Below, piece by piece: positions 13,362 to 43,161 of a stretch of 64,000 nt of DNA. This DNA comes from an uncultured Pseudomonadota bacterium (GTDB taxonomy: Bacteria; Pseudomonadota; Alphaproteobacteria; JACZXZ01). Each line of letters begins with the position of its first letter. Within the stretch, counting starts at the first letter, position 1. The translations under genes and the position numbers were made by a program. The notes below the pieces were generated by a model that was not told where the DNA came from, did not search any database, and was given only the letters and a program-made list of their open reading frames with translations. The DNA is taken from NCBI GenBank assembly GCA_963749075.1, contig CAVVLJ010000016.1, forward strand, positions 736,001-800,000, given 5' to 3'.

Positions 13362-13573
13362 CTCGTTGATGCACACAAATCGTAAGATTACAGGTGCCTC
13401 GGACAGGCAGCGGTGGGTCCTTCGAGACGCTCGCTGCGCTCGCTCCTCAGGATGAGGTAAAGTCTTTCTGCCACACACAAATCTGCCTCATCCTGAGGAG
13501 CGCCCCGAAGGGGCGCGTCTCGAAGGACCCACGGCGGCCCTGCAAGTCTCTTGGACGTGTGTGCATCGACTGG
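13362..13573. mobile_element. Family A MITE-like element, copy 1 (212 bp)
   Basis: TIRs CTCGTTGATGCACACA ... TGTGTGCATCGACTGG around inverted arms CCTTCGAGACGC-loop-GCTCCTCAGGATGAG and the spacer AAGTCTTTCTGCCACACACAAAT. Confidence 0.85.
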
Positions 13574-13759
13574 CGCTATCCTGCCCGGATTTCCGCAAGC
13601 ATTACCCGATTGCGTGCCCCATGCAACCGGGAGGCAGCCCGGCGCACGCGAAAGTGACCGCGCACGCCGCGCCCCGTGATTTTGCTTTGCCTTGCCGCGG
13701 CGGGCTGCCTAATCTCCGGGCAATCAAGGCCATGGGCACGCGCACGGCGAGGAGGAGAC

Positions 13760-14685
13760 ATGCGGATCGCCATCATCGGCCAGCAGGATTTCGGCAAGGC
13801 CGTGCTCGAGGCGTTCTTGAAGCGCGGCGACGAGGTGGCCGGCGTCTTCGTCTCGCCCGAGAAGCCGGGGTCGCGGCCCGATCCCTTGCGCGCGGCTGCC
13901 GAGGCGGCGGGCGTGAAAGTCTTCCAGATCGCCAAATTCACCGAGGCGCCGGCGCATGGACGCGCTCAAGGGCCTCGGCGCCGACATCGGCATCATGGCC
14001 TATGTGCTCGCCTTCGCGCCGCAGAGCTTCTGCGCGATCCCGAAGCACGGCACCATCCAGTACCACCCCTCGCTGCTTGCCGCTCCACCGCGGCCCCTCC
14101 TCGATCAACTGGCCGATCATCAAGGGCTTCACGAAGACAGGCCTCAGCATCTTCCGCCCGAGCGACGGGCTCGACGAGGGTCCGGTGGTGCTGCAGAAGG
14201 AGGTCGCCATCGGGCCGGACGACACCCTCGGCTCGCTCTATTTCGACAAGCTCTTTCCCATGGGCATCGCCGCCATGCTCGAGGCCGCGGATCTCGTGGC
14301 AGCTGGCAAGGCCAAGGAGACGGTGCAGGACGAGAGCCAGGCGACCTACGAGGGCTGGGTGCGCGAGGCCGAGGCGCGCATCAATTGGGCGCAGCCCATC
14401 GACCAGACCTACAACCTCATCCGCGGCTGCAACCCGCAGCCGGGCGCCTGGACCACGCTGGCCGGGAAGAAGCTCTATCTCTTCGACGCCAGGAAGACGA
14501 TCGCGCACACCTTCGGCCAGGTGCGCGGCAAGAAGATCGGCCAGGTCGCAGCCCTCTCGGACAAGAGCTTCACCGTGCACGGCCAGGGCGGCTTCATCGA
14601 GGTCTTGCGCTGCCGCTTCGAGGACGGCAAGAAGATCGCCGCGAACGAGGCGGGCATCGCCGAGGGCACTCTGCTGGGCGGCTGA
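13760..14685 (+). CDS. Formyltransferase (Fmt-like), split by two +1 frameshifts (near 13955 and 14078)
   Basis: MRIAIIGQQDFG, IQYHPSLL-PLHRGPSSINW and DGLDEG motifs spread over three frames; GGAGG RBS. Confidence 0.85.
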
Positions 14686-14755
14686 GCCCGCAACCATTCA
14701 TCCCATGGACATGACGGGCGCGCCCCTCGCGGCTGCGCCGGATCGAGGAGGACAT

Positions 14756-15937
14756 ATGGCGACGCCGCGCGGACGCAACTTCTTTCAGGCACCGGGGCCA
14801 ACCAACATCCCGGAGCGCATCCTGCGCGCGATGGCGGCACCGGCGATCGACTTCAAGGGTGCGGAGTTCGAGGCCATCGCGGAAGAGTGCTACGCGGGCC
14901 TGCGGCAGCTCTTCAAGACCGAGGGGACGGTCCTCGTCTATGCCTCGTCCGGTCACGGCGCCTGGGAGGCGGCGCTCGCCAATACGCTCTCGCCGGGCGA
15001 CAAGGTGCTGGTGGTGGAGAGCGGCTATTTCTCGCTCAAGTGGGGCGAGCTCGCGCAAGGCCTCGGGCTCGAAGCGGAGACGCTGGCGGCGGACTGGCGC
15101 ACGGGCGCCGATCCGGCAGCGCTCGAGGCTCGCTTGCGCGAGGACCGCGGGCACGCCATCAAGGCCGTGATGCTGGTGCACAACGAGACCTCGACGGGCG
15201 GCGTCGTCGGCGTCGCCGAGGCGCGCCGCGCCATCGATGCGGCCAAGCACCCCGCACTCTTCCTCGTCGACGTGATCTCCTCGCTCGCCTCGCTCGATTT
15301 CCGCATGGACGAGTGGCGCTGTGACGTGGTGGTCGGCGGCTCGCAGAAGGGCCTCATGATGCCGGCCGGCATGGCCTTCACCGCGGCGAGCGCGCGCGCG
15401 ATGGCGGCAGCGAAGGAGGCGCGGCTGCCGCGCATCTATTGGGACTGGCGGCGGCTCCTCGACGGCAAGCGCCAGGTCCATTTCAACGGCACGGGACCCG
15501 TGCACTTCTTCTATGGCCTCAGGGAGGCGCTCCGCATGCTCGGGGAAGAGGGGCTCGAGGAGGTCTTCGCGCGCCACCGCCGCCTCGCCGAGGCGACGCG
15601 CCGCGCGGTGCGCGCCTGGCAGCGGAACGACGGGCCGGAAATCTACGCGGCGAACCCGCGCATCCGCTCGGACTCGGTGACCGCCATCCTCGTGCCCGAG
15701 GGCCACGACGCGGACGCGGTGCGCCGCTTGAGCTTCGAGCGCTTCAACGTCTCGCTCGGCGGCGGCCTGGGGCCGCTCCAAGGCCACGTCTTCCGTCTCG
15801 CCCACATGGGCGAGCTCAACGAGCCCACGCTCCTCGGCGCCATCGCCGCGGTCGAGATGGCGCTCAAGCTCGCAGAAGTGCCCCACGGCAAGGGCGGCGT
15901 CGACGCCGCGATGGAGTATCTCGTCTCGCCCGGCTGA
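14756..15937 (+). CDS. Class V PLP aminotransferase (serine-glyoxylate aminotransferase-like), paralog 1
   Basis: PGPTNIP, HNETSTG, VDVISSL, GSQKGLM and FRLAHMG motifs. Confidence 0.93.
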   Translation: MATPRGRNFFQAPGPTNIPERILRAMAAPAIDFKGAEFEAIAEECYAGLRQLFKTEGTVLVYASSGHGAWEAALANTLSPGDKVLVVESGYFSLKWGELAQGLGLEAETLAADWRTGADPAALEARLREDRGHAIKAVMLVHNETSTGGVVGVAEARRAIDAAKHPALFLVDVISSLASLDFRMDEWRCDVVVGGSQKGLMMPAGMAFTAASARAMAAAKEARLPRIYWDWRRLLDGKRQVHFNGTGPVHFFYGLREALRMLGEEGLEEVFARHRRLAEATRRAVRAWQRNDGPEIYAANPRIRSDSVTAILVPEGHDADAVRRLSFERFNVSLGGGLGPLQGHVFRLAHMGELNEPTLLGAIAAVEMALKLAEVPHGKGGVDAAMEYLVSPG

Positions 15938-16206
15938 ACCGTGCATGGATTGCAAGGACGCTTGCACTTTCATCGCGGGTCCTTCGAGACGCGCCCCCGG
16001 CGCGCCAAGCGCGCCTCTCTTGCATCATGCAAGAGAGCGGGCCTTCGGCCCGCGGGGCGCTCCTCAGGATGAGGCAGATTTGTGTGTGGCAGAAAGACTT
16101 AACCTCATCCTGAGGAGCGAGCGCAGCGAGCGTCTCGAAGGACGCACCGCACTTGGTCCGAGGCGCCTTTACCTTGCGGAGCGCCGCTCGTCGCGTGCTT
16201 CTTACT
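15934..16206. mobile_element. Family A element, copy 2 (reverse orientation, 55-bp three-hairpin module in one arm, decayed TIRs)
   Basis: Core at about 15977-16148 matches copy 1 in reverse; module at 15999-16053; ends approximate. Confidence 0.8.
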
Positions 16207-17593
16207 GATACGGTTTGACGAGGACGGGATCGACGCGGTCTGCGTCGCCGCCGTCCGCCGGCTTTTTGCCGTAGGCGGCGATATCGACGCGCTCGGCCGA
16301 GATGCCCTGGCCCAGGAGGAAGGCGCGCACCGCATAGGCGCGCGAGAGCGAGATGCGGCGCGCGTGGCCGGCGTCGGCCCCGCTCTCGGAGGCGTAGGCG
16401 TAGAGCTTGATGCGCAAATCCTCGTCCTTCTTGAGCCGGCCGACCACCTGGCCGAGCGCCGCCTTGGCCTGGTCGCTGAGCTCGATGGCGCCGGCCGCGA
16501 AATCGATGCTCGGTCCCTTCTCTCCGGCCAACTGGGCGGGCGGCTTGGCCGCGACTTCGCCGACGGCGGTGGCCGGCGGCAGCTTGGGCTCGGCCAACGA
16601 CGCCGCCGCCGGTGCCGCCGGCGCCGGCGTTGTCGCGGCCTCCGGGACGGGTGGCGAAGCCGAGGCCTCTCGCGCGGGCGTGCTCGCCGCCGGCTCTGCG
16701 GGCGCGGCACTTTGGGCGGGCGAAGGACTTTGCGCCGGTGGGGCGGCCGGCGGAGCGGGTTTTGCCTCGGCAGCGGCCGCTGCGGGCGGAGAGGGCGGCG
16801 AGGTCAGCACCTCGGGCGTCGGCGGAGACGGCGGCGCCGCGGGCGCCCGTGCTGGCGCCGGTGCCGCCGCGGCGGCGCGCGCCGGTGCCGCCGCGGCCGC
16901 GGTCGGCTGCGCACTCGTCCGGGCAACCGGCGGCGGTGCTGCGGCTGTGCTCCGGGGTGCTGCGGGTCGCTGCGCGGCATTGGCTGGCGTCGCCAGCGTG
17001 CGCATGTAGCGCAGGAGCTCGCTCGTGGGGCGGCCGTCGACGGGAAGCCCGCTGTCCTGCTGGAAGAGCCGGATGGCGCGGAGCGTGCGCATCCCCATCC
17101 TGCCGCCGGTGGAGTCGGGCTCGTAGCCGAAGGAGATGAGCAGGCGCTGGATCTCGGCGAGCTCGGGCGACGCCTCGGCCGCAGCGCTTGCCGGCGCCTT
17201 GGCGGCCGGGCGCGGCGCTTTCGCAGCACTGCGCGGGGCCGCGGGTGGCGGCGCTGGCGGCGTCGCCGCTACGCTCGGCGCGGGGGCGGCGGGCTCGACG
17301 GGGGCCGCCGCAGGTGCGGCCGCCGCTTGCTGCTGCGGCGCTTCCGCCTGGGCCGGCGGAGCGGGCGTTGCCGCCGGTGCCGCCGCCGGCTGCGGCGCAC
17401 TTTCCTGCGCGGCGGGCGCCGGCGGCGAGGCCTCGCTCTTGGCGGCCGCGACGCTGGTGCCGGCCCCGGGCGCCTTCTCCTGCGCGCGATGCCCGGGGGC
17501 GAGGAGCAGCCACACGGCAAAGCCGAGAGCTGCGAAGCCGACGGCCACGCCCGTCCAACGAAGAATGTTCCTGGTTCTCGCTTGCAAGGCCAC
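16202..17593 (-). CDS. Membrane-anchored protein with peptidoglycan-binding domain, long Ala/Pro linkers and C-terminal OmpA-like domain
   Basis: N-terminal TM helix; EIQRLLISFGY...AIRLFQQDSGLPVDG; ISLSRAYAVRAFL...DRVD; GTG start at 17593 after AGGA. Confidence 0.85.
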   Translation of the reverse strand: MALQARTRNILRWTGVAVGFAALGFAVWLLLAPGHRAQEKAPGAGTSVAAAKSEASPPAPAAQESAPQPAAAPAATPAPPAQAEAPQQQAAAAPAAAPVEPAAPAPSVAATPPAPPPAAPRSAAKAPRPAAKAPASAAAEASPELAEIQRLLISFGYEPDSTGGRMGMRTLRAIRLFQQDSGLPVDGRPTSELLRYMRTLATPANAAQRPAAPRSTAAAPPPVARTSAQPTAAAAAPARAAAAAPAPARAPAAPPSPPTPEVLTSPPSPPAAAAAEAKPAPPAAPPAQSPSPAQSAAPAEPAASTPAREASASPPVPEAATTPAPAAPAAASLAEPKLPPATAVGEVAAKPPAQLAGEKGPSIDFAAGAIELSDQAKAALGQVVGRLKKDEDLRIKLYAYASESGADAGHARRISLSRAYAVRAFLLGQGISAERVDIAAYGKKPADGGDADRVDPVLVKPYQ

Positions 17594-17745
17594 GGTTCCT
17601 CTAGCGCCTGCGCGGTGGCGGGAAGGGGGCCGCGCGCTGCGCGACGCGCCGCCCTCGCCGCTCGCTGAATTTCCCAATCATTTCGGGAATATAGGCGGTG
17701 CCCCGGCGGGGAACAAGCAAGCAGCGCGCCGGCATCGGCGGCGGC

Positions 17746-18414
17746 TCAGAACTTGCCGTATTTGAGATAGGCCTCCTTGGGGTCCATGCCGCCCAGGATA
17801 GCCTTCCTGAGCTCGCTCTCGGTGCCGATCACCTCCTCGCTCAGCCGCACCACCTCCTCGGCGCGCGCGCGCGGGATGCGCACGATGCCGTCGCGGTCGG
17901 CGAGGACGTAGTCGCCGCTCGCGATCGTGACGGCGCCGATGACGAGCGGCTCCCCGATGCGCTCGGGCAGCCATTTCGCCACGATGTCGCTCGGCGTGGC
18001 GAAGCGGCAATAGACGGGAAAGCCGAGGGCCAGGATGAACTCCACGTCGCGCGTGGCACCGTCGACCAGGTAGCCGCGCACGCCGCGGTGCTTCAGCGTC
18101 TCGGCCGAGAGCTCGCCCATGAGGGCGCAGGCCGAGGTATTGGGCTGGCAGACCACGACCGAGCCTGCGGGTGCGCGCGAGAGGAGGCCGGTCCAGGCGA
18201 GGAGCGTCGCATGCGCCTCGAGCGTCTCGTCGTAGCGCCCGCTCACCGTGAAGGCGGGACCCGCGAGCTTGAGCGCGGGATCGAGGCCGCGGATCGTCTC
18301 GGGCAGCACGAAGCGGCACTCGCCGAGTGCGCGCAGCACGTCGTGGACAGCACCCGTGTAGCAGCGCGCGAGCCGCTGGGTGAGGGCCGCCTCGCTTGCG
18401 GCAAGCTCAGTCAT
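17746..18414 (-). CDS. RraA family / HMG-CHA aldolase-like protein
   Basis: GPAFTV, ALMGEL, VDGATRD and GDYVLADRDG motifs. Confidence 0.92.
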   Translation of the reverse strand: MTELAASEAALTQRLARCYTGAVHDVLRALGECRFVLPETIRGLDPALKLAGPAFTVSGRYDETLEAHATLLAWTGLLSRAPAGSVVVCQPNTSACALMGELSAETLKHRGVRGYLVDGATRDVEFILALGFPVYCRFATPSDIVAKWLPERIGEPLVIGAVTIASGDYVLADRDGIVRIPRARAEEVVRLSEEVIGTESELRKAILGGMDPKEAYLKYGKF

Positions 18415-19188
18415 CTACGACAGGCCCGCGGCGAGATAGCCGCCGTCGACGCGGATGATCTCGCCGGTGACATAGCTCGCGGCGGGCGAGGCGAGGAAGA
18501 TGGCCGCGCCCACCAGCTCCGGGAGCTCGCCGAAACGGCCCATGGGGGTGCGGCGCATGGCGGCCGCCTTGCGCTCCGGGCTCATCTTGTCGCGGTTGAG
18601 CTCGGTCATGAAATAGCCGGGTGCGATGGCGTTGACGCGCACGCCGCGCGTCGCCCACTCGGCGGCGAGCGTCTCGGTGAGGCCGAGCACGCCGTGCTTG
18701 CTCATCGTATAGGGCGTCGACTTTTGCAGGCCGATGAGCGAGGCGATCGAGCCGATGTTGACGATCGCTCCCTCGCCCCGCGCCAGCATGTGCCGCCCCG
18801 CCTCGAGGCAGGCGAAGAAGACGCTTTTGAGGTTGGTGTCGATCACGAGGTCGTACTGCTCGGGCGTGAAGTCCTCGCTCGGCTGGATGATCGTCACACC
18901 CTGGGAGTTGACCAGCACGTCGAGCTTGCCGAATTTAGCCGCCGCCCCGTCGATCACTGCCTTGAGGCGGGGGAGGTCGGTCACGTCGGCGGCATAACCC
19001 ACGGCGTCGGGATCGCTCTCGCGCAGGCGCTCTGCCACCTCCGCCACCTTGGCCGGCGTCTTGCCGAGGATGGCCACGCGCGCGCCCGCCTCCTGATAGG
19101 CGAGTGCGATCTCGCGCCCGATGCCGCTCGAGCCGCCGATGACGAGCGCCACCTTGTCCTTGAGCGAGAAGCGGTCGGCTTGGGTCAT
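18415..19188 (-). CDS. Short-chain dehydrogenase/reductase
   Basis: GGSSGIG, YTMSK (YxxxK), VRVNAIAPG and VDGG motifs. Confidence 0.95.
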   Translation of the reverse strand: MTQADRFSLKDKVALVIGGSSGIGREIALAYQEAGARVAILGKTPAKVAEVAERLRESDPDAVGYAADVTDLPRLKAVIDGAAAKFGKLDVLVNSQGVTIIQPSEDFTPEQYDLVIDTNLKSVFFACLEAGRHMLARGEGAIVNIGSIASLIGLQKSTPYTMSKHGVLGLTETLAAEWATRGVRVNAIAPGYFMTELNRDKMSPERKAAAMRRTPMGRFGELPELVGAAIFLASPAASYVTGEIIRVDGGYLAAGLS

Positions 19189-19201
19189 GGAGGGCGCTCC
19201 G

Positions 19202-19386
19202 CTAACGCTGAGTTACGAGGGGTCGCGACGCTTGCGGCGACGCAGTGGGTCCTTCGAGACGCAACCCTTTCGGGTTGCTCCTCAGGACGAGGTCAATTCG
19301 TGTGTGGCAGAAAGATTCTAACTCATCCTGAGGAGCGAGCGTAGCGAGCGTCTCGAAGGACGCACTACAGCCGGTCCGAGACCCAC
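19202..19386. mobile_element. Family A element, copy 3 (reverse orientation, right end missing)
   Basis: Core at 19245-19365 with arm loop AACCCTTTCGGGTT; flank CCGGTCCGAG as in other copies; ends approximate. Confidence 0.8.
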
Positions 19387-19423
19387 TATCGCTCTCCACG
19401 TCGAGCCAGCGGGCGTCGCTCAT
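19387..19423 (-). pseudogene. 12-codon N-terminal remnant (MSDARWLDVESD) of the gene coupled to the MNT; probably a HEPN-type partner
   Basis: ATG overlaps the MNT stop (ATGA at 19420-19423); the frame runs directly into family A copy 3. Confidence 0.5.
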
Positions 19424-19749
19424 TCGAGCACCAGGCCGTCCTTGAGCACGCGTGCGACAAATTCGGGCTTGCAGTACAGGGCTGGCCGAACATCCGGCGT
19501 CAAGCCAAGGCGCCGGCATTCGCCCTCGGCGAAGCGGCGGGCTTCGGAGGTGCTGGTCTCCGGAAAATCGACCAGGATGTCGATGTCGCTGTCGAAGCGA
19601 AGGCGATCCTCGGCGGCCGATCCGAAGACGATGAAACGTCCGCCGCGAGCCCGGGCATAAGAGCGCAGCGCCTCGCACAGGGTCGCGAAACCCTGACGCA
19701 TGGCCGCCACGTGCGCACGTTTCTGCTCGGTCAGCGTCGGGAACGTCAC
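19420..19749 (-). CDS. Minimal nucleotidyltransferase (MNT) domain protein
   Basis: VFGSAA...DSDIDILVD motif; 109 aa. Confidence 0.88.
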   Translation of the reverse strand: MTFPTLTEQKRAHVAAMRQGFATLCEALRSYARARGGRFIVFGSAAEDRLRFDSDIDILVDFPETSTSEARRFAEGECRRLGLTPDVRPALYCKPEFVARVLKDGLVLE

Positions 19750-19845
19750 AGCATCACCTGGAGCTGTGGATTGCTGGCTCTATTCGCACTCATTGCAGGC
19801 CTGCGTAGTTGCCAGCCGGCCAAAGCGATGTCAAGTGCGCGCCAT

Positions 19846-20546
<701 letters not shown>

Positions 20547-20547
<1 letters not shown>

Positions 20548-21275
20548 CACACCGCCTCCTCGCCGAGGTAGGACTTGAGCACCTCGGGATGGCGCACGAC
20601 TTCGGCGGGCGGGCCCTCGGCGATGCGCTCGCCGTGGTGCAGCACGACGATGCGGCCGGCGAGCGCCATCACCGCGCGCATGACGTGCTCGATGAGGAGG
20701 ATGGTAAGGCCGCCCTCGCGGTTGAGCTCGCGCAAGACCGCCACCATGCGGTCGACCTCGGTCGGGCGCAAGCCTGCCATGGTCTCGTCGAGGAGGAGGA
20801 GGCGAGGGGCTGTCGCGAGCGCCCGTGCGAGCTCGAGGCTTTTGCGGTCGGGGAGTGCGAGGCTGCCGGCAGCGAGATGGCGCTTCTCCCAGAGATCGAG
20901 GCGGCGCAGCACCTCGGCCGCGCGCGCCCGCGCCGCCTCCACGCCGCGCTCGGCCGCCAATGCCCCCACCACCGCATTGTCCTCGACCGAGAGCGCCATG
21001 AATGGGCGCACGGTCTGGAAGGTGCGCGCGATGCCGGCGCGGCACACGGCGTCGGGCGAGAGCCCGGCGATGCTGCGGCCGTCGAGCCGCACGTCGCCCT
21101 CGTCCGGCGCATGGACGCCGGCGATGACGTTGAAGAGCGTCGTCTTGCCGGCGCCGTTGGGGCCGATGACGGCGGCGATCTCGCCGCTCCGAAGCGCAAA
21201 GGAGACCGCGTTCACGGCGACGAGGCCGCGGAAGCGCTTGCTCACCCTATCCACGCTCAGAAGGGCGGCGCTCAT
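20547..21275 (-). CDS. livG: Branched-chain amino acid ABC transporter ATP-binding protein
   Basis: GPNGAGKT, GIARTFQ, IEHVM and SYLG motifs. Confidence 0.93.
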
Positions 21276-22270
21276 GCGGCGGCTTGGCGCGCCGCGCCCC
21301 GGCGTGCGCGGCGGGCAAGCCAGGGCCACACGCCGCCCGGCAAGGCGCGGATGACGGCGATGAGGATGAGGCCGTGGATGACGAGCTCGAGCCCGGGAAG
21401 CTCGAGCCCCATAGCGCCGGTGGCGCCGAGAAGGAGGGCGCGGAGCGGCGTCAAAAGGAAAGCGCCCACGATGGGGCCCACGAGCGTGCCGAGCCCGCCC
21501 ACGATGGGGGCGAGGATGATGTCGATGGAGCTGGCAATGGAGAAGACGTGCTCGGGGAAGAGATTGTCGTTGTAGAAGGCGTAGAAGGTGCCGGCGAGCG
21601 CCGTCATCGCGGCCGAGATGAGCACGGCCGCCATGCGCGCGCGGAAGAGATTGATGCCGAGCGCCTGGGCGGCCTCCGGGTCCTCGCGGATGGCGCGCCA
21701 TTGGTAGCCGAGGCGCGAGCGCAGCAGCAGTGCTGAGATGAGGAGTGCCGCCGCGGCGAGGAGCAGGATCGCGTAATAGTAAAGCTCGATGGGGCCGCGC
21801 AGCGCCAGGATGTCGAGGCGCCCCGCCGTGGCCACGGGAATGAAGAGGCCGCCCGAGGCGCCCGTCCACTCGATGTGGTCGAAGCCGATGCGCGCCACCT
21901 CGGCGAAGGCGATGGTGAGGAGAGCAAAATAGACGCCGGAGATGCGGAAGCGGAAGCCGAGCCAGCCGATGAAGGCGCCGGCCGTGGCCGCGAGCAGCAT
22001 GCCGGGGAAGAGCCCGAGGAGCGGCGGGATGCCGTAATGGACGAAGAGTGCCGCCGAGGCATAGGCGCCGAGGCCGACATAGAGCGCGTGGCCGATCGAG
22101 AGCAGGCCGGCGAAGCCCATCATCAGGTTCCACGCCTGGCCGAGATAGGCCGAGTAGAGCACGAGGATGAGGAGGGAGAGGCTGTAGCGGTCGAGGAGGA
22201 GGGGGGCGGCGAGGAGGACGACGAGCGCTGCCGCTGCCGCGAAGAGGCCGTTCCGGGAGAGGCCGCGCAT
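21272..22270 (-). CDS. livM: Branched-chain amino acid ABC transporter permease
   Basis: WNLMMGFAGLLSIGH, YFALLTIAF and AIREDPEAA motifs. Confidence 0.92.
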   Translation of the reverse strand: MRGLSRNGLFAAAAALVVLLAAPLLLDRYSLSLLILVLYSAYLGQAWNLMMGFAGLLSIGHALYVGLGAYASAALFVHYGIPPLLGLFPGMLLAATAGAFIGWLGFRFRISGVYFALLTIAFAEVARIGFDHIEWTGASGGLFIPVATAGRLDILALRGPIELYYYAILLLAAAALLISALLLRSRLGYQWRAIREDPEAAQALGINLFRARMAAVLISAAMTALAGTFYAFYNDNLFPEHVFSIASSIDIILAPIVGGLGTLVGPIVGAFLLTPLRALLLGATGAMGLELPGLELVIHGLILIAVIRALPGGVWPWLARRARRGAARQAAA

Positions 22271-23231: not shown

Positions 23232-23232
23232 A

Positions 23233-23994: not shown

Positions 23995-24062
23995 GAGCCC
24001 CCTCCTTCGTGTCTCAACAACATCTTCCGGCGACGGCTCCCCACCTCCCCCTCCCTTGAGGG

Positions 24063-24301
24063 CTAAGGGATGCACACATCTCGAGGAGCCTTGCAGTACC
24101 GCTGTGGGTCCTTCGAGACGCGCCCCTTCGGGGCGCTCCTCAGGATGAGGCGATTTCGTGTGTGGCAGAAAGACCTAACCTCATCCTGAGGAGCGAGCGC
24201 AGCGAGCGTCTCGAAGGACCCACCGCAGCCAGTCCGAGGCACCTTTGACCGCGCGACACCGCGCTTTGCCGGTGATATTCGGACTTGTGTGACTCCCATA
24301 G
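24063..24301. mobile_element. Family A element, copy 4 (239 bp), inserted in a family B REP hairpin
   Basis: TIRs CTAAGGGATGCACACA / TGTGTGACTCCCATAG (13/16 match); flanking direct repeats CTCCCTTGAGGG (24051-24062) and CCCCCTTGAGGG (24302-24313). Confidence 0.88.
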
Positions 24302-24332
24302 CCCCCTTGAGGGACAGGGTCAGGGAGGGGGG
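24302..24332. repeat. Family B REP-like unit (right arm, interrupted by family A copy 4)
   Basis: CCCCCTTGAGGGACAGGGTCAGGGAGGGGGG, inverted relative to 23184-23215. Confidence 0.75.
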
Positions 24333-30893: not shown

Positions 30894-30952
30894 CGCGAGC
30901 GACGATGCGTGTGGCGGTCGCCGCCTGTCCTCTCCCTCCCCCGCGAGGGGGG

Positions 30953-31235
30953 CTGCGCGGTGAATGGAAGTCAGAGAAGCAATGGCAGAGTGGTGCCGTG
31001 GCGCCTCGGACCCCGCGCAGTGGGTCCTTCGAGACGCTCGCCCGGCGCGCGAAGTGCGCCTCTCCGCATGATGCAAGGGAGCGGGCCTTCGGCCCGCCAG
31101 GCGCTCCTCAGGATGAGATCAAGTCTTTCTGCCACGCACAAATTGCCCTCGTCCTGAGGAGCAACCCGCAAGGGTTGCGTCTCGAAGGACGTGCGGTGGC
31201 TCTGCCAGCGTTCCTAAGATGTGCGAATGCCGTAG
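30953..31235. mobile_element. Family A element, copy 5 (about 283 bp, with the three-hairpin module), inserted at a family B-like hairpin
   Basis: Core at 31020-31190; module at 31044-31097; right TIR TGTGCGAATGCCGTAG; flanks CGCGAGGGGGG (30942-30952) / CTCGAGCGGGG (31236-31246), 9/11 match. Confidence 0.78.
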
Positions 31236-31290
31236 CTCGAGCGGGGCAGGGGAGCGGGCTCGACGTCCACGGTGCCGGGGCGGCCCGCCG

Positions 31291-34225: not shown

Positions 34226-34233
<8 letters not shown>
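33229..34233 (+). CDS. Peptide ABC transporter ATP-binding protein (DppD-like)
   Basis: GESGAGKS, FSGGMRQR, ADEPTTALNV and GCAFHPRC motifs. Confidence 0.94.
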
Positions 34234-35265
<1,032 letters not shown>

Positions 35266-35266
<1 letters not shown>

Positions 35267-35356
35267 CGGTGCTGTCCCTCACCCTCCCAAGGCTTCGCCT
35301 TGGGTCCCTCCCTCTCCCGTTTACGGGAGAGGGTCGGGGTGAGGGCCGGCACCGCC
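35266..35356. repeat. Family B REP-like multi-hairpin unit
   Basis: CCCTCACCCT-CCCAAGGCTTCGCCTTGGG-TCCCTCCCTCTCCCGTTTACGGGAGAGGG-TCGGGGTGAGGG. Confidence 0.8.
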
Positions 35357-35453
35357 TTTCAAGGAGATGCGAGCGATGCAATCGGCTGCACGCGACCGAG
35401 GCGGGGGTGCGCATCCTTGAGGAGGGCGGCAACGCGATCGATGCGGCACGGTC
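35350..35453 (+). pseudogene. Degenerate duplicate of the ggt RBS and 5' end with an internal deletion of about 100 bp
   Basis: CACCGCCTTTCAAGGAGA...ATGCAATCG and GTGCGCATCCT...GAGGGCGGCAACGCGATCGA match 37633-37835. Confidence 0.85.
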
Positions 35454-35599
35454 CACAGCAGTCGATACAGTGCCGAACTTCGCCTGGAATTACGTTCGGC
35501 CGAAAGCAAGTGATCGTATTCCTATGGACAGGATCACGATCTGCACCAACTCCACTCCATATGGTATTGTCAAAGGCGGTATTCCGGTAGCGGGCGCCA

Positions 35600-37227
35600 T
35601 TACGCAGCCCGTGCAATTCTCCTAGTGTCACTCAGCGCCCGATCGATCAAACAGTCCATCTCAAGGCGGACGAGGTTGTTGTCCAGAGTCCCGATATTGT
35701 CGGAGCGAGTTTGCTCCGGGGCCGAGCCCACCGCAATTCTTTGCTCGACCGCATTGCGCAGTCGCCGCAGGCGGAATTCCTCGAAAGGTACAATTGCCGC
35801 CACGACGCTTTGGCGTGCCGCCGTCAAGTGACCCAAGACCGCCTCGGCGTGCGCATTGATCAGGCGCAGTGCCGCGCGCTCCTCGACATCTATCCCCGGG
35901 CGTGCTGAGATACTCATCAAGATGTCGCGCGCAGCTTGCGCTCGCCTTGACGCGATCCGTGCGACGGCCAGCGTCGTCTCGAAGTAACGCTTCTGCTCAT
36001 AATACGGACAGGTCGCGGCATATTCAATGAGACGATCGGCAAAAGCCGGTGATATGCCCTCCCTCATTTCAATCATCAAAAGAACGTGGACACCGATCCA
36101 TTCGCTCAAACTGCGGGGCTTGCGGACCAGAGATTGAAGGATCGAACGTGCTTCGTCCGAGCGCCTAATTCCACAAGAACGACTGCTTGTCCAACAATGT
36201 TGAAATCAGACGGCAATTCCCCTCTCCCGTTTGGTAGGCGGCGAGCGCCTCATCGAGCCGCCCCATGGCGCGCAGCGTCTCGGCGCGGCCGTTCCGTGCG
36301 ACGGCATTCTCCGGAAATGCCTCGACCGTCCGGTCATAGGCGGCGAGCGCCTCATCGAGCCGCCCCATGGCGCGCAGCGTCTCGGCGCGGCCGGTCCGTG
36401 CGTCGACTTTCTCCGGAAACGCCTCGACCGTCCGGTCATAGGCGGCGAGCGCCTCATCGAGCCGCCCCATGGCGCGCAGCGTCTCGGCGCGGCGAATGTA
36501 GAAATGCAGAAGAATGTTGTAAGATGTATAATTGAACGTATTTAAAATGCGGAGCTGTGCTAGTTGTAAGAGAATGAATTTTTGACTATACTGAAGCTGG
36601 CTTATAATGAAGTGTTACGGAGTGATATGAACTTGAACATTGGATATTGATTGTTTGAGAACTGTAGTGGTGAGAGTAGGGGTGAGCGCAGTTTTGCAGG
36701 AGCTTGAACTGCTAAGCTTGTACAGCAGAGCACAAGGATAAATATTGTGGTAGCTTGAATTTTTTGTGTGAGATATAATAAGTTTAAGTTGAGGTTTGAG
36801 AAATGATTGAAAGTGGTTGGAGATCTGTCCAATTGACATTTTTGGCGAAGAATATTTTTGTCCGTAGATCGCCTTGATCGCCATCGAAGATACCCGTTGC
36901 CAACGCTGCAACAAGCCCGTTATCGTACGCTTGGTCCAATGCAGCTGTGCCTTCGACCGAGGTTAATTTCTTCTGGTAACCCCAAGCCCGGACCTCGTCC
37001 TCGATTTGGAGGAGCAACGGCGCACTAACGATGCCATAGAGTCTTTCAACTCTCTTGAGCTCCTCCTCGCGCGCCAAGCGTAGCGCGCCGAAGAAATCCC
37101 AGGCTTGACTGGCAACTGGTTTCAGAAAACGCCTCTCAATGAACTCCGCGACCGCTCGGTCCGCAAGCACGCGATCGGCGCGGCGTATATTGCGACGCCG
37201 CAAATCCCAATCCAGTTCGGGGTCCAT
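35600..37227 (-). pseudogene. Probable disrupted TPR-repeat protein gene (N-terminal part 36830-37227, TPRs 36235-36493, C-terminal part 35600-36109)
   Basis: Three same-strand ORF pieces; TPR unit GRLDEALAAYDRTVEAFPE..ARNGRAETLRAM; interrupted by an AT-rich block and a frameshift. Joining the pieces into one gene is inference. Confidence 0.6.
36235..36493. repeat. 102-bp tandem repeat (2.5 units) encoding 34-aa TPRs
   Basis: Unit starts TAGGCGGCGAGCGCCTCATCGAGCCGCCCCATGG at 36235, 36337 and 36439. Confidence 0.95.
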
Positions 37228-37658
37228 ACCGATCAGGATCCATGGAGAGTTTCGAAGCGGCGCGTCTCAATTTTAAGAGTTAATTTAGAGGTTATCTTCT
37301 GTTAGTGGACCATCGGCCGTAGGATCGAATACCCGCACCTCAAGCCAAGATCAAAGAAGAACCGGATATCGTTCGCCTGGGGCGGCGCCGGTCCTCACCT
37401 TGGAAAAGCCAGTCTCGCCGAGAGGGAAGGGGCCCGGCCCGCAGAGATGTGAATGTGACGGCTGAGTTCATGCGCCAACTTGGTTGATCGCCGCAATTCC
37501 GGATGCGGTAGCTTTGAGCAACCGAACTCCCAAGCCTCTCGGTCGTCGGCGTCGGTTAGAGGTCTATCCAATGTCACCTGTCCAATGCTTCTCGGGGCAG
37601 AGTACCGTTTGGACGGGAAGGGTGAGGGACAGCACCGCCTTTCAAGGAGACCAGAGCA

Positions 37659-39413
37659 ATGCAATCGACTGCACGTGCCCTTCTTATTCTCGTCCTCGCG
37701 ACCCTCCACGCCCACGCGGCCACGCGCCCGGCGGTCGAGGCCGAGCATGGCATGGTCGTCGCCGCCCAGCATTATGCGACCGACGTTGGCGTGCGCATCC
37801 TGCAAGAGGGCGGCAACGCGATCGACGCCGCGGTCGCGGTCGGCTACGCGCTCGCGGTGGTCAACCCCTGCTGCGGCAACATCGGCGGCGGCGGCTTCAT
37901 GACCATCCACCTAGCCGACGGGCGCGACAGCTTCATCAATTTCCGCGAGACGGCACCGGCGGCGGCGACGGCGACCATGTATCTCGACGCGGCCGGCAAG
38001 CCCATTCCCGGCGCCAGCCTCTACGGCTACCTTGCCGTGGGCGTGCCGGGCACCGTGATGGGGCTCGAGAAGGCACTCGCCGAGTACGGCAGGCTGCCGC
38101 GCGCGAAGGTCATGGCGCCGGCGATCGCACTCGCGCGCGATGGCTATCTCCTGGCCCGCGCCGACACCGACATCCTCGACAACAAGGTCGCACGCTTCGG
38201 CCGCGACCCCGCCGCGCGCCGGATCTTCCTCCGGCCCGACGGCACGCCCTTCGAGCCCGGCGACCGCCTCGTCCAGAGCGACCTCGCCGCCACCCTGGCG
38301 CTCATCGCCGAGCGCGGCGCGGACGCCTTCTACGAGGGCCCCATCGCGGCGGCGGTGGCGGCGGCGAGCAAGGCCAATGGCGGCATCCTGACGGCGGACG
38401 ACTTCGCCCATTACACGGTAACCGAGGCTGCGCCGCTCAGTTGCAGCTACCGCGGCTACGTGCTGCTCTCGGCACCCCCGCCGAGCTCGGGCGGCGTCAC
38501 CATCTGCGAGATCCTCGACGTGCTCGAGGGCTACGACATGGCGGCGCTCGGCTTCCGCTCGGCCCGCTCGGTGCATCTCATGGTCGAGGCCATGCGCCAC
38601 GCCTTCATGGACCGCAACAGCTACCTGGGCGACCCGGCCTTTGTTAAGAACCCGCTTGAGCGCCTGCTCTCCAAGGACTACGCGGCTCAGATCCGCGCCG
38701 CGATCCAGCCCGACAAGGCGACGCCGTCGGCGGCGGTGGCGCCAGGTGTGGCGCCGCACGAGAAGGCGGAGACCACGCACTACTCGATCGTGGACAAGGA
38801 GGGCAACGCGGTCTCGGTCACCTACACGATCAACGGCTACTTCGGCGCCAACGTGATGGCGCCCGGCACGGGCTTCTTCCTCAACGACGAGATGGACGAT
38901 TTCACCATCAAGCCCGGGACGGCGAACCTCTTCGGCCTGGTGCAGGGCAAGGCGAACGCCATCGAGCCCGGCAAGCGGCCGCTCTCCTCCATGGCGCCCA
39001 CCATCGTGACCAAGGACGGCAAGGTCTTCCTCGTGGTCGGCAGCCCGGGGGGCTCGCGCATCATCACCATCACGCTCGAGACCGTGATGAACGTCATCGA
39101 TTACGGCATGGGCCCGGAGGAGGCGGTCGACGCGCCGCGCCTCCATCACCAATGGCTGCCCGATGAGGTGTTCTACGAGCCCTACGGCCTGTCGCCCGAC
39201 ACGATCGCGCTTCTCACGGGCATGGGCTACAGGCTTAAGGAGCAGCCGCCCTGGGGGGCGGCCGAGCTCATCGAGATCGCAGGCGTCGCACCCGCCGCCA
39301 GGGGCAGCGCCTCCTCGGGCAACGGCGCGGCGCTCTCCGGCCGCTTGCGCGCTGGCTACCTCTACGGCGCCAACGACGACCGCCGCCCGGCGGGCGAGGC
39401 GGCGGGATATTGA
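37659..39413 (+). CDS. ggt: Gamma-glutamyltranspeptidase (exported)
   Basis: GGNAIDAAVA, FRETAP, ETTHYS (Thr nucleophile), LNDEMDDF, KRPLSSMAP and GSPGGSRI motifs. Confidence 0.96.
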   Translation: MQSTARALLILVLATLHAHAATRPAVEAEHGMVVAAQHYATDVGVRILQEGGNAIDAAVAVGYALAVVNPCCGNIGGGGFMTIHLADGRDSFINFRETAPAAATATMYLDAAGKPIPGASLYGYLAVGVPGTVMGLEKALAEYGRLPRAKVMAPAIALARDGYLLARADTDILDNKVARFGRDPAARRIFLRPDGTPFEPGDRLVQSDLAATLALIAERGADAFYEGPIAAAVAAASKANGGILTADDFAHYTVTEAAPLSCSYRGYVLLSAPPPSSGGVTICEILDVLEGYDMAALGFRSARSVHLMVEAMRHAFMDRNSYLGDPAFVKNPLERLLSKDYAAQIRAAIQPDKATPSAAVAPGVAPHEKAETTHYSIVDKEGNAVSVTYTINGYFGANVMAPGTGFFLNDEMDDFTIKPGTANLFGLVQGKANAIEPGKRPLSSMAPTIVTKDGKVFLVVGSPGGSRIITITLETVMNVIDYGMGPEEAVDAPRLHHQWLPDEVFYEPYGLSPDTIALLTGMGYRLKEQPPWGAAELIEIAGVAPAARGSASSGNGAALSGRLRAGYLYGANDDRRPAGEAAGY

Positions 39414-39561
39414 CGGCGCGGTCGAGCGGAGGCCGCGGCCGACGGCCTCCGGCCGGGCGCTTTCGGTTGCCCGGGCGGATTGCTATCATTCATGCCGCTG
39501 CAAAGGCCATCGGGCGGGTGTAAGCCCGGGAACGAGCCGCGAGCACCTGGGGAGGGCGCCC

Positions 39562-40224
39562 TTGAACTACGTCTTCCAGTTCGGAGACGTGTGGAATTCC
39601 TGGCACGAGCTGGCGCTGGGGGCGTGGCTCACCGTGCGGCTCTCGGCCTATTCGATGGTGCTCGGGCTGCTCGTCGCGATCGTCTTCGCCCTGGGCAAGA
39701 CCTCGGGGCCGAGGCCCATCCGCGCGCTCGTCGACGTCTACGTCGAGGTGATCCGCAACACGCCCTTCCTCATCCAGCTTTTCATCGTCTTTTTCGGCTT
39801 GCCGGTGCTCGGGCTGCGCCTCGAGGCGAACACGGCGGCCCTCCTCGCCATGGTGATCAACGTCGGGGCCTATGCCACCGAGATCGTGCGCGCCGGCATC
39901 GAGAGCATCACGCGCGGCCAGACCGAGGCGGGGAAGGCCCTCGGCCTCAGGCCGCTGCAGGTCTTCCGCCACATCGTCCTCCTGCCGGCGATCCGCACGG
40001 TCTATCCCGCCCTCACCAGCCAGTTCATCCTCCTGATGCTGAACTCCAGCGTCTGCTCGACGATCGCCGCGGACGAGCTGACGGCTGCGGCCAACGACAT
40101 CCAGTCGCGCACCTTCCGCAGCTTCGAGGTGTATTTCGTCGCGACCGGCATCTACCTCGCCCTCTCGCTCGCCTTCTCGGCCGTCTTCGCCGGGATCGAG
40201 CGGGCCGTTCTCGTGCGCCGCTGA
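39562..40224 (+). CDS. Polar amino acid ABC transporter permease
   Basis: IRNTPFLIQ and AYATEIVRAGIESI..GQ.EA motifs; TTG start after GGAGG. Confidence 0.92.
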   Translation: MNYVFQFGDVWNSWHELALGAWLTVRLSAYSMVLGLLVAIVFALGKTSGPRPIRALVDVYVEVIRNTPFLIQLFIVFFGLPVLGLRLEANTAALLAMVINVGAYATEIVRAGIESITRGQTEAGKALGLRPLQVFRHIVLLPAIRTVYPALTSQFILLMLNSSVCSTIAADELTAAANDIQSRTFRSFEVYFVATGIYLALSLAFSAVFAGIERAVLVRR

Positions 40225-40241
40225 CGGGGCGGAGAAGTTCC

Positions 40242-40892
40242 ATGCGCGATCTCGGCTTCAGCGATCTCGCCTACATCGTGCTCGCGGCGCGCTGGACGAT
40301 CGCCCTTTCGGGAATCGCCTTCGTGGGCGGCAGCATCGGAGGCCTGGCCGTGGCTCTCGCGCGCACGGCGCCGCCCTTATGGCTGTGCTATCTCTCCGCC
40401 GGCTACATCCGGCTCTTCCAGGGCACGCCGCTCCTCATGCAGCTTTTCCTCGTCTTCTTCGGCATCAACATCCTCGGCCTGAGCGTCGATCCGTGGACGG
40501 CGGCAAGCCTCGGCCTCACGCTCAACGCCAGCGCCTTCCTGGGCGAGATCTGGCGCGGCTGCATCGAGGCCGTTCCCAAGGGCCAGTGGGAGGCGGCGGA
40601 GGCGCTCGGCCTGCGCTATGCGGGCCAGATGCGCAGCGTCATCCTGCCGCAGGCCGCGAAGGTCGCCGTGGCCCCCACCGTGGGCTTCCTCGTGCAGCTC
40701 ATCAAGGCGACCTCGCTCGCCTCGATCATCGGCTTCGTGGAGCTCACGCGCTCGGCGCAGGTCATCAACAACGCCGTCTTCCAGCCCTTCAAGATCTTCG
40801 GCCTCGTGGCGCTGGTCTATTTCCTGATGTGCTGGCCGCTCTCGATTTTGAGCAATCGCATGGAGAAGAGACTTGCCCTAGGATCGCGCTGA
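40242..40892 (+). CDS. Polar amino acid ABC transporter permease
   Basis: FQGTPLLMQ, EIWRGCIEAVPKGQWEA and KATSLAS motifs. Confidence 0.93.
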   Translation: MRDLGFSDLAYIVLAARWTIALSGIAFVGGSIGGLAVALARTAPPLWLCYLSAGYIRLFQGTPLLMQLFLVFFGINILGLSVDPWTAASLGLTLNASAFLGEIWRGCIEAVPKGQWEAAEALGLRYAGQMRSVILPQAAKVAVAPTVGFLVQLIKATSLASIIGFVELTRSAQVINNAVFQPFKIFGLVALVYFLMCWPLSILSNRMEKRLALGSR

Positions 40893-40992
40893 GCCGAGGC
40901 GAGAGGGAGCTTGCGCGAGCCGTCCGTGCCGCCGGCCGGGCATGGTGGAGACGGGCTCGAGATAACCGGCCGAGCAAGGGAGGAATCGTGCC

Positions 40993-41812
40993 ATGAGATC
41001 GCTGCATCCGCTTCAGAGGATCGTGCATTGGCCGCTTGCGGCGCTCGCCCTCGCGCTCGCCTTCGCCTGGGCGGCGCCCCAGCCCGCGCAGGCCCTCACG
41101 GTCGACGACATTCTCGCCAAGAAGAAGCTGGTGGTCGGCGTGCTCACCGACTTCCCGCCCTTCGGCGGCACCGACGCGCAGCAGAAGCCGGACGGCTACG
41201 ACGTTGACGTTCTCACGCCTCGTGGCCAAATACTTGGGCGTCGAGCTCGAGCTCGTGCCGGTGACCGGACCGAACCGCATCCCCTACCTCCTGACCAACA
41301 AGATCGACATGCTGATCGCCACCTTCGGCATCACGCCCGAGCGCGCCAAGCAGGTGCAGTTCTCCATTCCCTACAGCAGCATCGACATCTATCTCTTGGC
41401 GCCCAAGAAGCTCGCCATCAAGAGCCCCGAGGACCTGAAGGGCGTCAAGATCGCGGTGGCGCGCGCCAGCACCCAGGACACCGCGATCAGCGCGATCGCC
41501 CCCAAGGACGCCCGCATCATGCGCTTCGACGACGACGCGAGCGCGCTTCAGGCGATGATCTCCGGACAGTCCGACGCCCTGGGTGCTGCCAACGTGGTGC
41601 TGGCCCAGCTCAGGAAGAGCCATCCCGAGATGGAGATCGAGCCCAAGATCACGCTGCGCCACCAGCCGAACGGCATAGCACTCCGCCGCGCCGACGGCGA
41701 GCTGCGCCAATGGGTCGATACCGTGATCTTCTACATCAAGAACAACGGCGAGCTCGACGCCATCAACCGCAAATGGCTGGGCCAGCCGCTGCCCGAGCTG
41801 CCGACGTTCTGA
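40993..41812 (+). CDS. Polar amino acid ABC transporter substrate-binding protein, +1 frameshift near 41210
   Basis: Signal peptide and DFPPFG...DGYDVD in one frame; NRIPYL...ITPERAKQVQFS...KWLG in the next. Confidence 0.88.
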
Positions 41813-41839
41813 GGTATGTCCCGCTTCGGCGCGGCCGTT

Positions 41840-41961
41840 GAGCTGGTCCTCGATTGTTGGACAGGCGGCAGCAGACTTAGGGTGTATTCCGCCGAATAAC
41901 GGAGGAGTGCGAGACGGCGGAATACACCTTATCGCCCTGCCCGATTTTCCAGGACCAGCTC
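41840..41961. mobile_element. 122-bp MITE-like palindromic element (family D)
   Basis: 11-bp TIR GAGCTGGTCCT/AGGACCAGCTC; inner 14-bp inverted repeat GGTGTATTCCGCCG (41881-41894 / 41915-41928); flanks GCCGTT/GCCATT. Confidence 0.6.
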
Positions 41962-42097
41962 GCCATTGGCCCGCTCAGCGGACGTTGTCATCCTACTGGC
42001 GTCGAAAGCGACCTCCAAAGCGGCCATGGTTATAAAAGATAAGGCTATTATCAAATGCTTAGCGGTTGATCGGGGCACTGACCCATGGTAGGAACGA

Positions 42098-42424
42098 ATG
42101 ATGGACAAAGAATTGGCCAGCGATCCGATTCTAACCCGCTTCCGCGCCGCCTTAGACGACCTTTATGGCGCGCGGCTGGCTCGGGTCGTGCTCTTCGGTT
42201 CGCGCGCGCGCGGCGAAGGCGGACGTTCGTCCGATTACGACGTCGCCGTGTTCCTCACCGCCTTGTCCGACCGTTGGGCGGAACTCGACCGGCTGGCCGA
42301 TCTGCGCGTGCGGTTCCTCGACGAGACGGACACCTTCTTCGACGCCATGCCCTTCCCGGCAGCGGCGTATCGTGATCGCTCGCCGCTCATGCACGAAATC
42401 CGGCGGGACGGCCTTGACCTGTGA
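42098..42424 (+). CDS. Minimal nucleotidyltransferase (MNT) antitoxin-like protein
   Basis: VLFGSRARGE...SSDYDVAV motif. Confidence 0.9.
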   Translation: MMDKELASDPILTRFRAALDDLYGARLARVVLFGSRARGEGGRSSDYDVAVFLTALSDRWAELDRLADLRVRFLDETDTFFDAMPFPAAAYRDRSPLMHEIRRDGLDL

Positions 42425-42828
42425 CTCCGGAGGCATCCGCCTTTTTGGCGAAAGCGCAGCACCTGCTCGCCGAGGCGGACACCATGCTTGGCGTTGGCCT
42501 CAACGATGCTGCGGGACGCACGGCCTACCTCGCGGGCTTTCACGCCGCCCAGGCGCTTATATTCGAGCGCCTGGGCAAAATGCTTAAATCCCACCGGGGT
42601 GTGCAAACGGAATTCCTGCGGCTGACCAAAGACGACGCAAAACTGACGGTCGCCCTGCGCGGATTCCTCTCCCGCGCGTATAATCTCAAGGCAATTGCCG
42701 ATTATGAAACTGGCCCCGGTTCCGAGATATCGCGGGCGCGGGCAGGCGAAGCCGTGCGAACAGGCAAGCAGTTCGTCGCTCATGTTGAGGCGCAGGTTGC
42801 CGCGCCCGAAAAGCCATCAAGCCGGTAA
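42421..42828 (+). CDS. HEPN domain protein (UPF0332-like)
   Basis: AYLAGFHAAQAL, KSHRGV and IADYE; GTGA overlap with the MNT gene. Confidence 0.88.
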   Translation: MTPEASAFLAKAQHLLAEADTMLGVGLNDAAGRTAYLAGFHAAQALIFERLGKMLKSHRGVQTEFLRLTKDDAKLTVALRGFLSRAYNLKAIADYETGPGSEISRARAGEAVRTGKQFVAHVEAQVAAPEKPSSR

Positions 42829-42851
42829 TACGCGAATCGGGCATTCACATC

Positions 42852-43161
42852 GTCATTCCCGCGAAAGCGGGAATCCAGCATCGTCTGGACCCCCGCTTTC
42901 GCGCTAGCAGATGCACACATCTTGAGGGGGCTTGCAGATCCGCCGTGGGTCCTTCGAGACGCGCCCCTTCGGGGCGCTCCTCAGGATGAGGCAAATCTGT
43001 GTGTGGCAGAAAGACTTTTCCTCATCCTGAGGAGCGAGCGTAGCGAGCGTCTCGAAGGACGCACCGCGGCCGGTCCGAGGCCCCTTTGCAGCGCGCAACA
43101 TCATGATTTGCCGGTGATCTTAGAAATTGTGTGCATCAACTAGCGCTTTCGCGGGGGTGAC
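42852..43161. repeat. Family C REP-like doublet (GTCATTCCCGCGAAAGCGGGAATCCAG...CTGGACCCCCGCTTTCGCGGGGGTGAC), interrupted by family A copy 6
   Basis: Left arm at 42852-42878; right arm split into 42885-42903 and 43144-43161. Confidence 0.85.
42904..43143. mobile_element. Family A element, copy 6 (240 bp, best preserved)
   Basis: TIRs CTAGCAGATGCACACA / TGTGTGCATCAACTAG (14/16 match); perfect 10-bp duplication CGCTTTCGCG at 42894-42903 and 43144-43153. Confidence 0.92.

Follow-up and report, generated by a model that had tools for sequence, protein, structure and literature searches.

Family A, an intergenic hairpin repeat of an alphaproteobacterium: miniature inverted-repeat elements that a Tn5/IS50-like insertion sequence very probably moves into the hairpins of other repeats

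The stretch of DNA considered here (the window, 64,000 nucleotides, G000:C16:736001-800000) belongs to a draft alphaproteobacterial genome (G000, the source genome; 5.49 Mb, 68% G+C, 23 contigs), which was compared with five congeneric genomes (G001-G005). The window contains six copies, c1 to c6, of a hairpin repeat referred to as Family A. The 23-nt spacer of this repeat, searched with at most three mismatches, was matched at positions 13460(+), 16078(-), 19296(-), 24154(-), 31121(+) and 42995(-), i.e., twice on the plus strand and four times on the minus strand, versus no matches expected from 100 shuffles. All six copies lie between long open reading frames (ORFs) as predicted on a mechanical ORF map. 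The preliminary description of this DNA had reported six intergenic copies in both orientations, and this stands. The copies that bear terminal inverted repeats (TIRs) are, in our view, non-coding transposable elements of the miniature inverted-repeat kind (MITEs) of about 240 bp, for which a Tn5/IS50-like insertion sequence (IS) of 1484 bp very probably supplies the transposase in trans. The copies and the two parts of the target interrupted by c6, a doublet of the repetitive extragenic palindromic (REP) type, are arranged in the window as follows.

13362..13573, plus strand: c1, MITE copy of 212 bp with both TIRs
about 15942..16178, minus strand: c2, core-only copy with a nested insert of ~56 nt and three hairpins in one arm
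about 19227..19384, minus strand: c3, core-only copy corresponding to model positions 61-217, left part absent
24063..24299, minus strand: c4, full-length MITE inside a C-run/G-run palindromic repeat
30953..31235, plus strand: c5, old full-length copy with decayed TIRs and a nested ~56-nt insert
42851..42903, plus strand: left part of the c6 target, CGTC-type REP doublet, its first hairpin and the left half of the second
42904..43143, minus strand: c6, full-length MITE of 240 bp, one among four genomic copies 99-100% identical
43144..43161, plus strand: right part of the c6 target, the right copy of the 10-bp duplication (43144-43153), followed by the right half-hairpin and a TGAC tag

The core, in which the asymmetric spacer separates a left from a right arm and each arm contains a small internal hairpin, is common to all six copies, and the single-stranded fold of c6 reaches -69.7 kcal/mol (z = -8.8, 200 shuffles). 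Copies c1, c4 and c6 have clear TIRs of the form CTAGnnGATGCACACA, those of c5 being decayed; sequence comparison revealed no TIRs in c2, and no left TIR and a weakly TIR-like right end in c3. The architecture proposed earlier, in which TIRs enclose the arms and the spacer, is therefore valid for the whole set as far as the core is concerned, and does not extend to c2 and c3 in respect of the TIRs. When compared with the nhmmer model, c2 covers positions 49-174 and 177-232, and c5 covers positions 25-122 and 108-237. Copy c1 is short because part of its left subterminal region is missing; it is located 20 bp from the start codon of a minus-strand ORF ending at 13341 and has no flanking direct repeat. 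Direct repeats flank c6 (10/10; 42894-42903 and 43144-43153), where they lie across the loop of CCCCCGCTTTCGCGGGGG, as well as c4 (11/12; 24051-24062 and 24300-24311) and c5 (9/11, in a C-run/G-run hairpin; 30942-30952 and 31236-31246), all three pairs having been read from the sequence. Three direct repeats, each spanning the loop of a hairpin from a different repeat family, had been described previously: the three duplications are confirmed, and the target families in the window number two, not three, because the hairpins at c4 and c5 look like one C-run/G-run family.

The partner element was sought among all near-matches to the 10-nt TIR core (at most one mismatch, 110 matches), and in the resulting listing two pairs of ends were separated by ~1.48 kb in which no Family A core is situated. 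These ends delimit an IS of 1484 bp present in two copies, at G000:C17:950547-952030 and on contig C2 (positions 248-1731 of locus L001 and 261-1744 of locus L002), each with a single ORF of 469 amino acids; the two encoded proteins are 100% identical and have no stops. The ORF matched the NCBIfam model NF033590 (IS4 family transposase) with an E-value of 6e-87 and 292 bits at a cut-off of 160, and Pfam DDE_Tnp_1 above its cut-off. It also matched the structure of the Tn5 transposase (1mus; E 1e-29, residues 11-443), and the catalytic D, D and E segments of Tn5, placed by residue numbers that we take to be those of this enzyme, align with D, D and E of the ORF. In addition, YKKRWTIEQLFRTLK in the ORF represents the Y-2-R-3-E-6-K signature, defined for the IS4 family in the sections of PMC2266710 consulted, and is aligned with the corresponding segment of Tn5. 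The right end of the MITE agrees with the left end of the IS at 20 of 21 positions and its left end with the right end of the IS at 15 of 16, while the rest of the MITE has no match to the IS beyond the tips, as is expected of a MITE and its autonomous relative. The IS ends, compared by eye, fit the pattern CW------Y---CA-A--W- at 7/7 specified positions (Table 1 of PMC2266710), and the length of the element falls within the range of 1350-1550 bp tabulated there for the IS50 subgroup together with direct repeats of 8-9 bp. On its protein and its ends, the partner is a Tn5/IS50-like member of the IS4 family. Mobilisation in trans had been supposed in the preliminary description, and a transposase gene bounded by the same TIR is indeed present in the genome in two copies, the IS having its ends, duplication length and hairpin target in common with the MITE.

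Target-site duplications were analyzed by comparing 10 bp on each side of 40 elements, namely 18 MITEs and the two ISs of the source genome and 20 full MITEs of the five congeners. As determined by script, the flanks were identical at 8 or more of 10 positions in 22 of the 40 elements and at all 10 in 12 of them; among 20000 random pairs of 10-mers situated 240 bp apart, 22 reached 8/10. The IS on contig C17 (10/10) and c4 (11/12) come on top of the 22 found by script: their boundaries were 1-2 bp off, and the repeats were read directly. The duplication length of 10 bp is fixed by the non-palindromic sites L065, L067 and C17:397534. One of the copies without a duplication adjoins a nested insertion of ~2.3 kb at the terminal CTAG of the MITE. 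This insertion, with CTAG on both sides, occupies G000:C16:1369440-1371750 (about 341-2650 of L081); DDE_3 and HTH_32 domains were identified in an ORF within it, and another transposase-like reading lies at one of its ends; the same CTAG junction occurs on contig C5 near 11868. Also among the copies without a duplication are three in G005, which have the left flank of one G002 site and the right flank of another (L061, L066, L069, L070, L071), which suggests, from the sequences compared, that recombination between MITE copies has rearranged the genome.

The choice of targets is strongly biased. In the source genome 13-14 of the 18 MITEs, as well as both ISs, interrupt CCCCCGCnnnnGCGGGGG at the same position, and only 2 intact CCCCCGCnnnnGCGGGGG loci remain; hairpins of other repeats are thus preferred targets, as had been proposed. 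CCCCCGCnnnnGCGGGGG is the second hairpin of a doublet, the first hairpin of which is similar, and both halves bear CGTC/GACG tags. A tag, a GC-rich stem, a 4-nt loop and the doublet layout are visible, and it is by this layout only, not by consensus, that the doublet is likened to CGTC REPs. When its occurrences are set out in rows, 14 appear interrupted at the same point and some 10 others whole or almost whole. The sequence of the duplication alone is not sufficient for target choice, since the genome contains 18470 occurrences of CGCNNNNGCG when this 10-bp pattern is searched by itself. The other targets are GC-rich palindromes, e.g., the C-run/G-run repeats at c4, c5, C17:397534 and L067, and non-palindromic ones are few (c1, L065). 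Four MITEs that are 99-100% identical lie in both orientations with respect to the asymmetric outer flanks of the hairpin; this indicates that they were inserted separately and not copied as parts of a larger composite.

The full-length MITE was detected in all five congeners with 82-91% identity. Matches in the family's other genera were confined to the generic arm region, and a match of any kind was obtained in 12 of the 31 genomes searched. Empty sites in relatives, by which the preliminary description was to be checked, were found for c1, c3 and c5. Copy c1 is missing from its position in four congeners (G001, G003, G004 and G005), and an independent copy is found at another place in this spacer in G002. 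Copy c5 is absent from the orthologous spacer in G001, G002, G004 and G005, with an intact C-run/G-run palindrome in G002 and G004, and c3 is absent from the orthologous spacer in G002 and G005. Outside the window, the two genes that border the copy at C17:46769 are only ~20 bp apart in four congeners, and in G002 this site holds an intact doublet, its hairpin uninterrupted. For c6 no usable orthologous site was available, its left flank being non-syntenic in the five congeners; the flank query for c4 matched nothing in the congeners, and for c2 only paralogue-level matches of about 69% were obtained. The near-identical copies and the empty orthologous sites suggest that the MITE has been recently active. 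The region next to c3 also differs between the genomes: window positions 19400-19850 (~450 bp, with a small ORF) correspond in G002 and G005 to ~175 bp with another kind of REP doublet.

A genome-wide census was performed with a profile built from full copies and searched against the source genome, the copies being divided into classes by our own thresholds. It revealed 56 spacer-bearing copies, of which 20 have both ends, 9 the right end only, 2 the left end only and 25 neither. Both 10-nt TIR cores (at most two mismatches) are present in 18 of the 20 two-ended copies. Full copies measure 212-249 bp, their interior being a hairpin doublet, and this size is too small for transposase coding. 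The view of Family A as a non-autonomous element is accordingly borne out by the TIR-bearing copies, with their 240 bp, TIRs and 10-bp duplications, and fails for the end-less ones (25 of the 56 genome-wide, two of the six in the window), so that the family as a whole is not simply a MITE. About 25 further loci share the arm sequences and have other spacers and no ends; end-less doublet repeats form a larger class, to which the interior of the MITE belongs. The 25 end-less copies of Family A proper retain cores 82-92% like the consensus, and their right boundaries cluster at model positions 216-225, while the left ones are scattered from position 20 to 61. Decay of the MITE was considered as the sole source of the core-only copies and rejected: their flanks keep no residual similarity, whereas the cores are conserved at 82-92%.

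A second MITE type of ~190 bp, in which the same TIRs enclose a CGTC-type REP doublet, was observed at G000:C16:365804-365996 (about 105-297 of L082), with a probable further copy near G000:C21:711745 and no clear duplication. Because the end-less copies show no residual similarity to the ends, and because this second type exists, capture of a doublet by IS ends is favoured, and we infer that the MITE interior in all likelihood came to lie between IS ends a single time, in the genus ancestor. The capture of a REP doublet suggested earlier thus gains from the sharp boundaries of the core, the second MITE type and the ~25 end-less doublets, and is not reflected in the tree of the cores, which mixes the classes.

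Several results weigh against movement of Family A by this IS. The transposase was found in the source genome and in one of the five congeners (66% identity), while all five carry the MITE; it was not found in the other four, the assemblies of which consist of 210-600 contigs, and multi-copy ISs may be unassembled there. The 10-bp duplication of the IS is outside the 8-9 bp of the IS50 subgroup, although within the 'about 10 bp' of the whole IS4 family. No recognisable duplication flanks 4 of the 18 MITEs in the source genome and 5 of the 20 in its relatives, and in about 4 of 15 hairpin insertions in the source genome the two copies of the duplication are reverse complements of each other. 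The predicted fold of the rebuilt target sites is weakly shifted in this 68% G+C genome (median -8.3 vs -6.1 kcal/mol for random 40-mers), 9 of 40 sites falling below the 5th percentile and none below the 1st; because of this weak shift, target preference rests on the repeated use of one exact position. The indications of mobility come from comparison of sequences and not from direct transposition. Finally, 25 of the 56 copies are without any ends, their similarity to the ends exceeds that of shuffles in 0/21 cases on the left and 0/19 on the right, and in a FastTree phylogeny of core columns 61-215 (a short alignment, its support values unread) end-bearing and end-less copies are intermixed. 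These last results bear on an alternative to which we give somewhat less than an even chance, namely that Family A consists for the most part of an end-less REP-like doublet (~165-175 nt), which would spread by an unknown route as CGTC REPs presumably do, the MITE being a minority derivative and most copies not having been moved by the IS. Such an origin would accommodate well-preserved cores in copies that resemble neither end, the clustering of the right boundaries, the end-less state of the ~25 doublets that share the arms, the wrapping of a different REP doublet in the same ends in the second MITE type, and the lineage-specific occurrence of the end-less c3 and c5-like sites. It agrees poorly with the tree, where, within the limits of that alignment, end-less and end-bearing cores do not form two clades, and with the scatter of the left boundaries, which resembles erosion; besides, no candidate mover is known, the genome being devoid of a Y1/RAYT transposase. 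The same absence makes it extremely improbable that the repeat is a doublet of the REPIN kind (REP doublets forming hairpins) moved by a RAYT (REP-associated tyrosine transposase), even though its interior, an inverted doublet, adopts a long hairpin fold: PF01797 (Y1_Tnp) had no match in the 96%-complete genome, whereas the same search matched 6 of 14 control genomes, and TIRs with 10-bp duplications are foreign to REPINs.

It may also be supposed that the half-hairpins flanking the MITE belong to a longer composite repeat with extended inverted ends, which is copied as a unit; we consider this very improbable. Nearly all hairpins of the intact pattern are occupied, with the two intact CCCCCGCnnnnGCGGGGG loci left over, and in three copies the flanks are perfect inverted repeats (10/10 when flipped); both points speak for a composite. 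Yet direct 10-bp repeats were found in 22 of 40 elements versus inverted ones in 3 of 40, the outer flanks are asymmetric (GGA / TGAC) and hold near-identical MITEs both ways round, and the same MITE is present in unrelated palindromes and in one non-palindromic site; moreover, looser intact doublets do exist, about 10 in the source genome and one at the orthologous spacer of G002. The composite reading is largely refuted by the orientation data. The flipped duplications themselves comprise three sites of the source genome with 10/10 identity as the reverse complement and a further one across a nested IS, to which the related ISs L011 and L014 are added. They count against insertion by the IS transposase because a plain staggered cut does not yield a reverse-complement duplication. 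At the flipped sites the outer flanks come from a single site, and the flipped orientation of the loop was seen in none of nine intact hairpins; one flip represents one event, since its MITE is essentially identical to its sisters. Recombination between oppositely oriented targets was rejected as the source of the flips, as the outer flanks of each site correspond to one orientation of one site. The cause could be insertion into non-B DNA, or a template switch by which a long imperfect palindrome was corrected.

Considering these facts, the favoured course of events, with the MITE moved by the Tn5/IS50-like transposase, may be outlined as follows. The transposase would bind the ends of ~16-21 bp that the IS and the MITE have in common, and the element would be excised by DDE cut-and-paste chemistry, as in Tn5, and joined to the target with a 10-bp stagger on or near the dyad of a GC-rich palindrome. 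With the second hairpin (CCCCCGCnnnnGCGGGGG) of a CGTC-type REP doublet as the main target, the resulting duplication would span the loop of this hairpin. Preference for a symmetric target would come naturally to a synaptic complex with two-fold symmetry. As a speculation, the hairpin in the interior of the MITE may bring its ends together, or may render the element harmless in intergenic DNA. We would add, as a tentative and rather unlikely proposal, that the clade of Tn5-like transposases represented by this enzyme and its relatives in Bradyrhizobium, Sinorhizobium, Reyranella and other alphaproteobacterial assemblies recognises an extruded hairpin or cruciform instead of a sequence, the flipped duplications then being the footprint of insertion into non-B DNA and not later mutations. 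If that were so, the same enzyme would repeatedly package REP doublets and would be a mover or shaper of the orphan CGTC-type and doublet repeats.

Other repeats were noted alongside Family A. The ~56-nt three-hairpin insert is located at about 15985-16045 in c2 and about 31035-31095 in c5, and occurs at 15 loci genome-wide; in all 15 occurrences found it sits inside the small hairpin that belongs to one arm of a doublet, adding a third, strictly site-bound level to the nesting of repeats in repeats. Window positions 36235-36540 consist of three head-to-tail units of 102 bp, 95-100% identical, and positions 15062-15619 and 46746-47303 are 70-77% identical at a constant spacing of 31684 bp, which probably reflects paralogous genes. 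Querying Rfam with the window and with c6, a check envisaged in the preliminary description, gave no valid match: at the gathering threshold there were no matches in the window, and the E-value matches on c6 were dismissed as spurious, being long-hairpin miRNA models far below threshold (e.g., 35 vs 268 bits).

The system described here would provide a clean example from nature of a Tn5-type transposase that is narrow in its choice of targets, hitting the loops of GC-rich hairpins in repeats with a 10-bp stagger; with it comes an abundant and apparently recently active MITE usable as a reporter. Two questions become testable with it, i.e., whether a Tn5 relative reads DNA structure or palindromic sequence, and how repeats come to nest within repeats in alphaproteobacterial intergenic regions. 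For annotation, about 30 intergenic repeats per genome are explained in this genus, and the exchanged flanks suggest that MITE copies are tied to flank exchange between loci.

Proteins related to the transposase, with 58-68% identity, are present in assemblies labelled Bradyrhizobium, Reyranella, Mesorhizobium, Phenylobacterium and others, and also on Sinorhizobium plasmids; in Bradyrhizobium, each of two contigs (1484-1485 bp) corresponds exactly to one such IS. Among nine related alphaproteobacterial ISs with both ends called (38-66% amino acid identity), eight lie between the halves of a GC-rich palindrome. One IS of S. meliloti (L059; 38% amino acid identity) occupies 8 places in one replicon, with the same type of ends and a CCCCTCCCC/GGGGAGGGG palindrome. 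It may be ISRm22; its annotation is without an IS name. ISRm22, an IS4-family element of Sinorhizobium meliloti, has all its copies in REPs at the axis of a GC-rich palindrome, according to the portion of Tobes and Pareja (2006; PMC1525189) drawn on here, which gives 6-bp repeats for it and three copies with imperfect repeats, attributed by the authors to recombination; De Palmenaer et al. speak of its 'spectacular apparent insertion specificity' (PMC2266710, in the section used here). Like the partner IS, it is an IS4-family DDE element in REP palindromes near the axis, and since its REP targeting is already published (PMC1525189), the behaviour of our IS is of a known kind. The two differ in that ISRm22 is autonomous, the available part of PMC1525189 mentioning no MITE derivative, while a MITE is present here, and in that ISRm22 is placed in subgroup IS4Sa (in the part of PMC2266710 referred to), whereas the ends of our IS fit the IS50 subgroup. 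REP-targeting ISs, one of them of the IS4 family, and IS-derived MITEs are therefore established, while the MITE itself is apparently unnamed: no description of it was found in the literature searched, ISfinder lying outside that search. The earlier view of an undescribed element accordingly holds for the MITE and not for REP targeting by an IS4-family element, which the portion of PMC1525189 at hand already describes.

With IS50/Tn5 the IS shares a transposase that aligns over 430 residues and ends that begin with 5'-CT. A preference of Tn5/IS50 for palindromic targets with G/C at the repeat ends is cited in the portion of PMC1525189 considered. IS50/Tn5 produces 9-bp duplications, in contrast to the 10 bp of our IS, which has far narrower targets, the REP-like hairpins, and has presumably given rise to an abundant MITE. 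The REP-specific ISs listed in the same portion of PMC1525189 (IS1397, ISKpn1, IS621, ISPpu9/10, ISPsy8, ISPa11) likewise insert at a fixed point of the REP palindrome, often the symmetry axis, but they belong to families IS3 and IS110, have duplications of 0-3 bp, and none is a MITE. Both the cargo and the target of the mobile unit resemble REPINs and CGTC REP doublets in being inverted doublets of GC-rich hairpins, and the target doublet has CGTC tags and 4-nt loops like the CGTC-1 repeats. CGTC repeats are common in Alphaproteobacteria and have no dedicated transposase, as stated in the section of PMC3733652 consulted. The mobile unit differs from REPINs in its IS-type TIRs, its 10-bp duplications and its predicted dependence on a DDE transposase instead of a tyrosine one.

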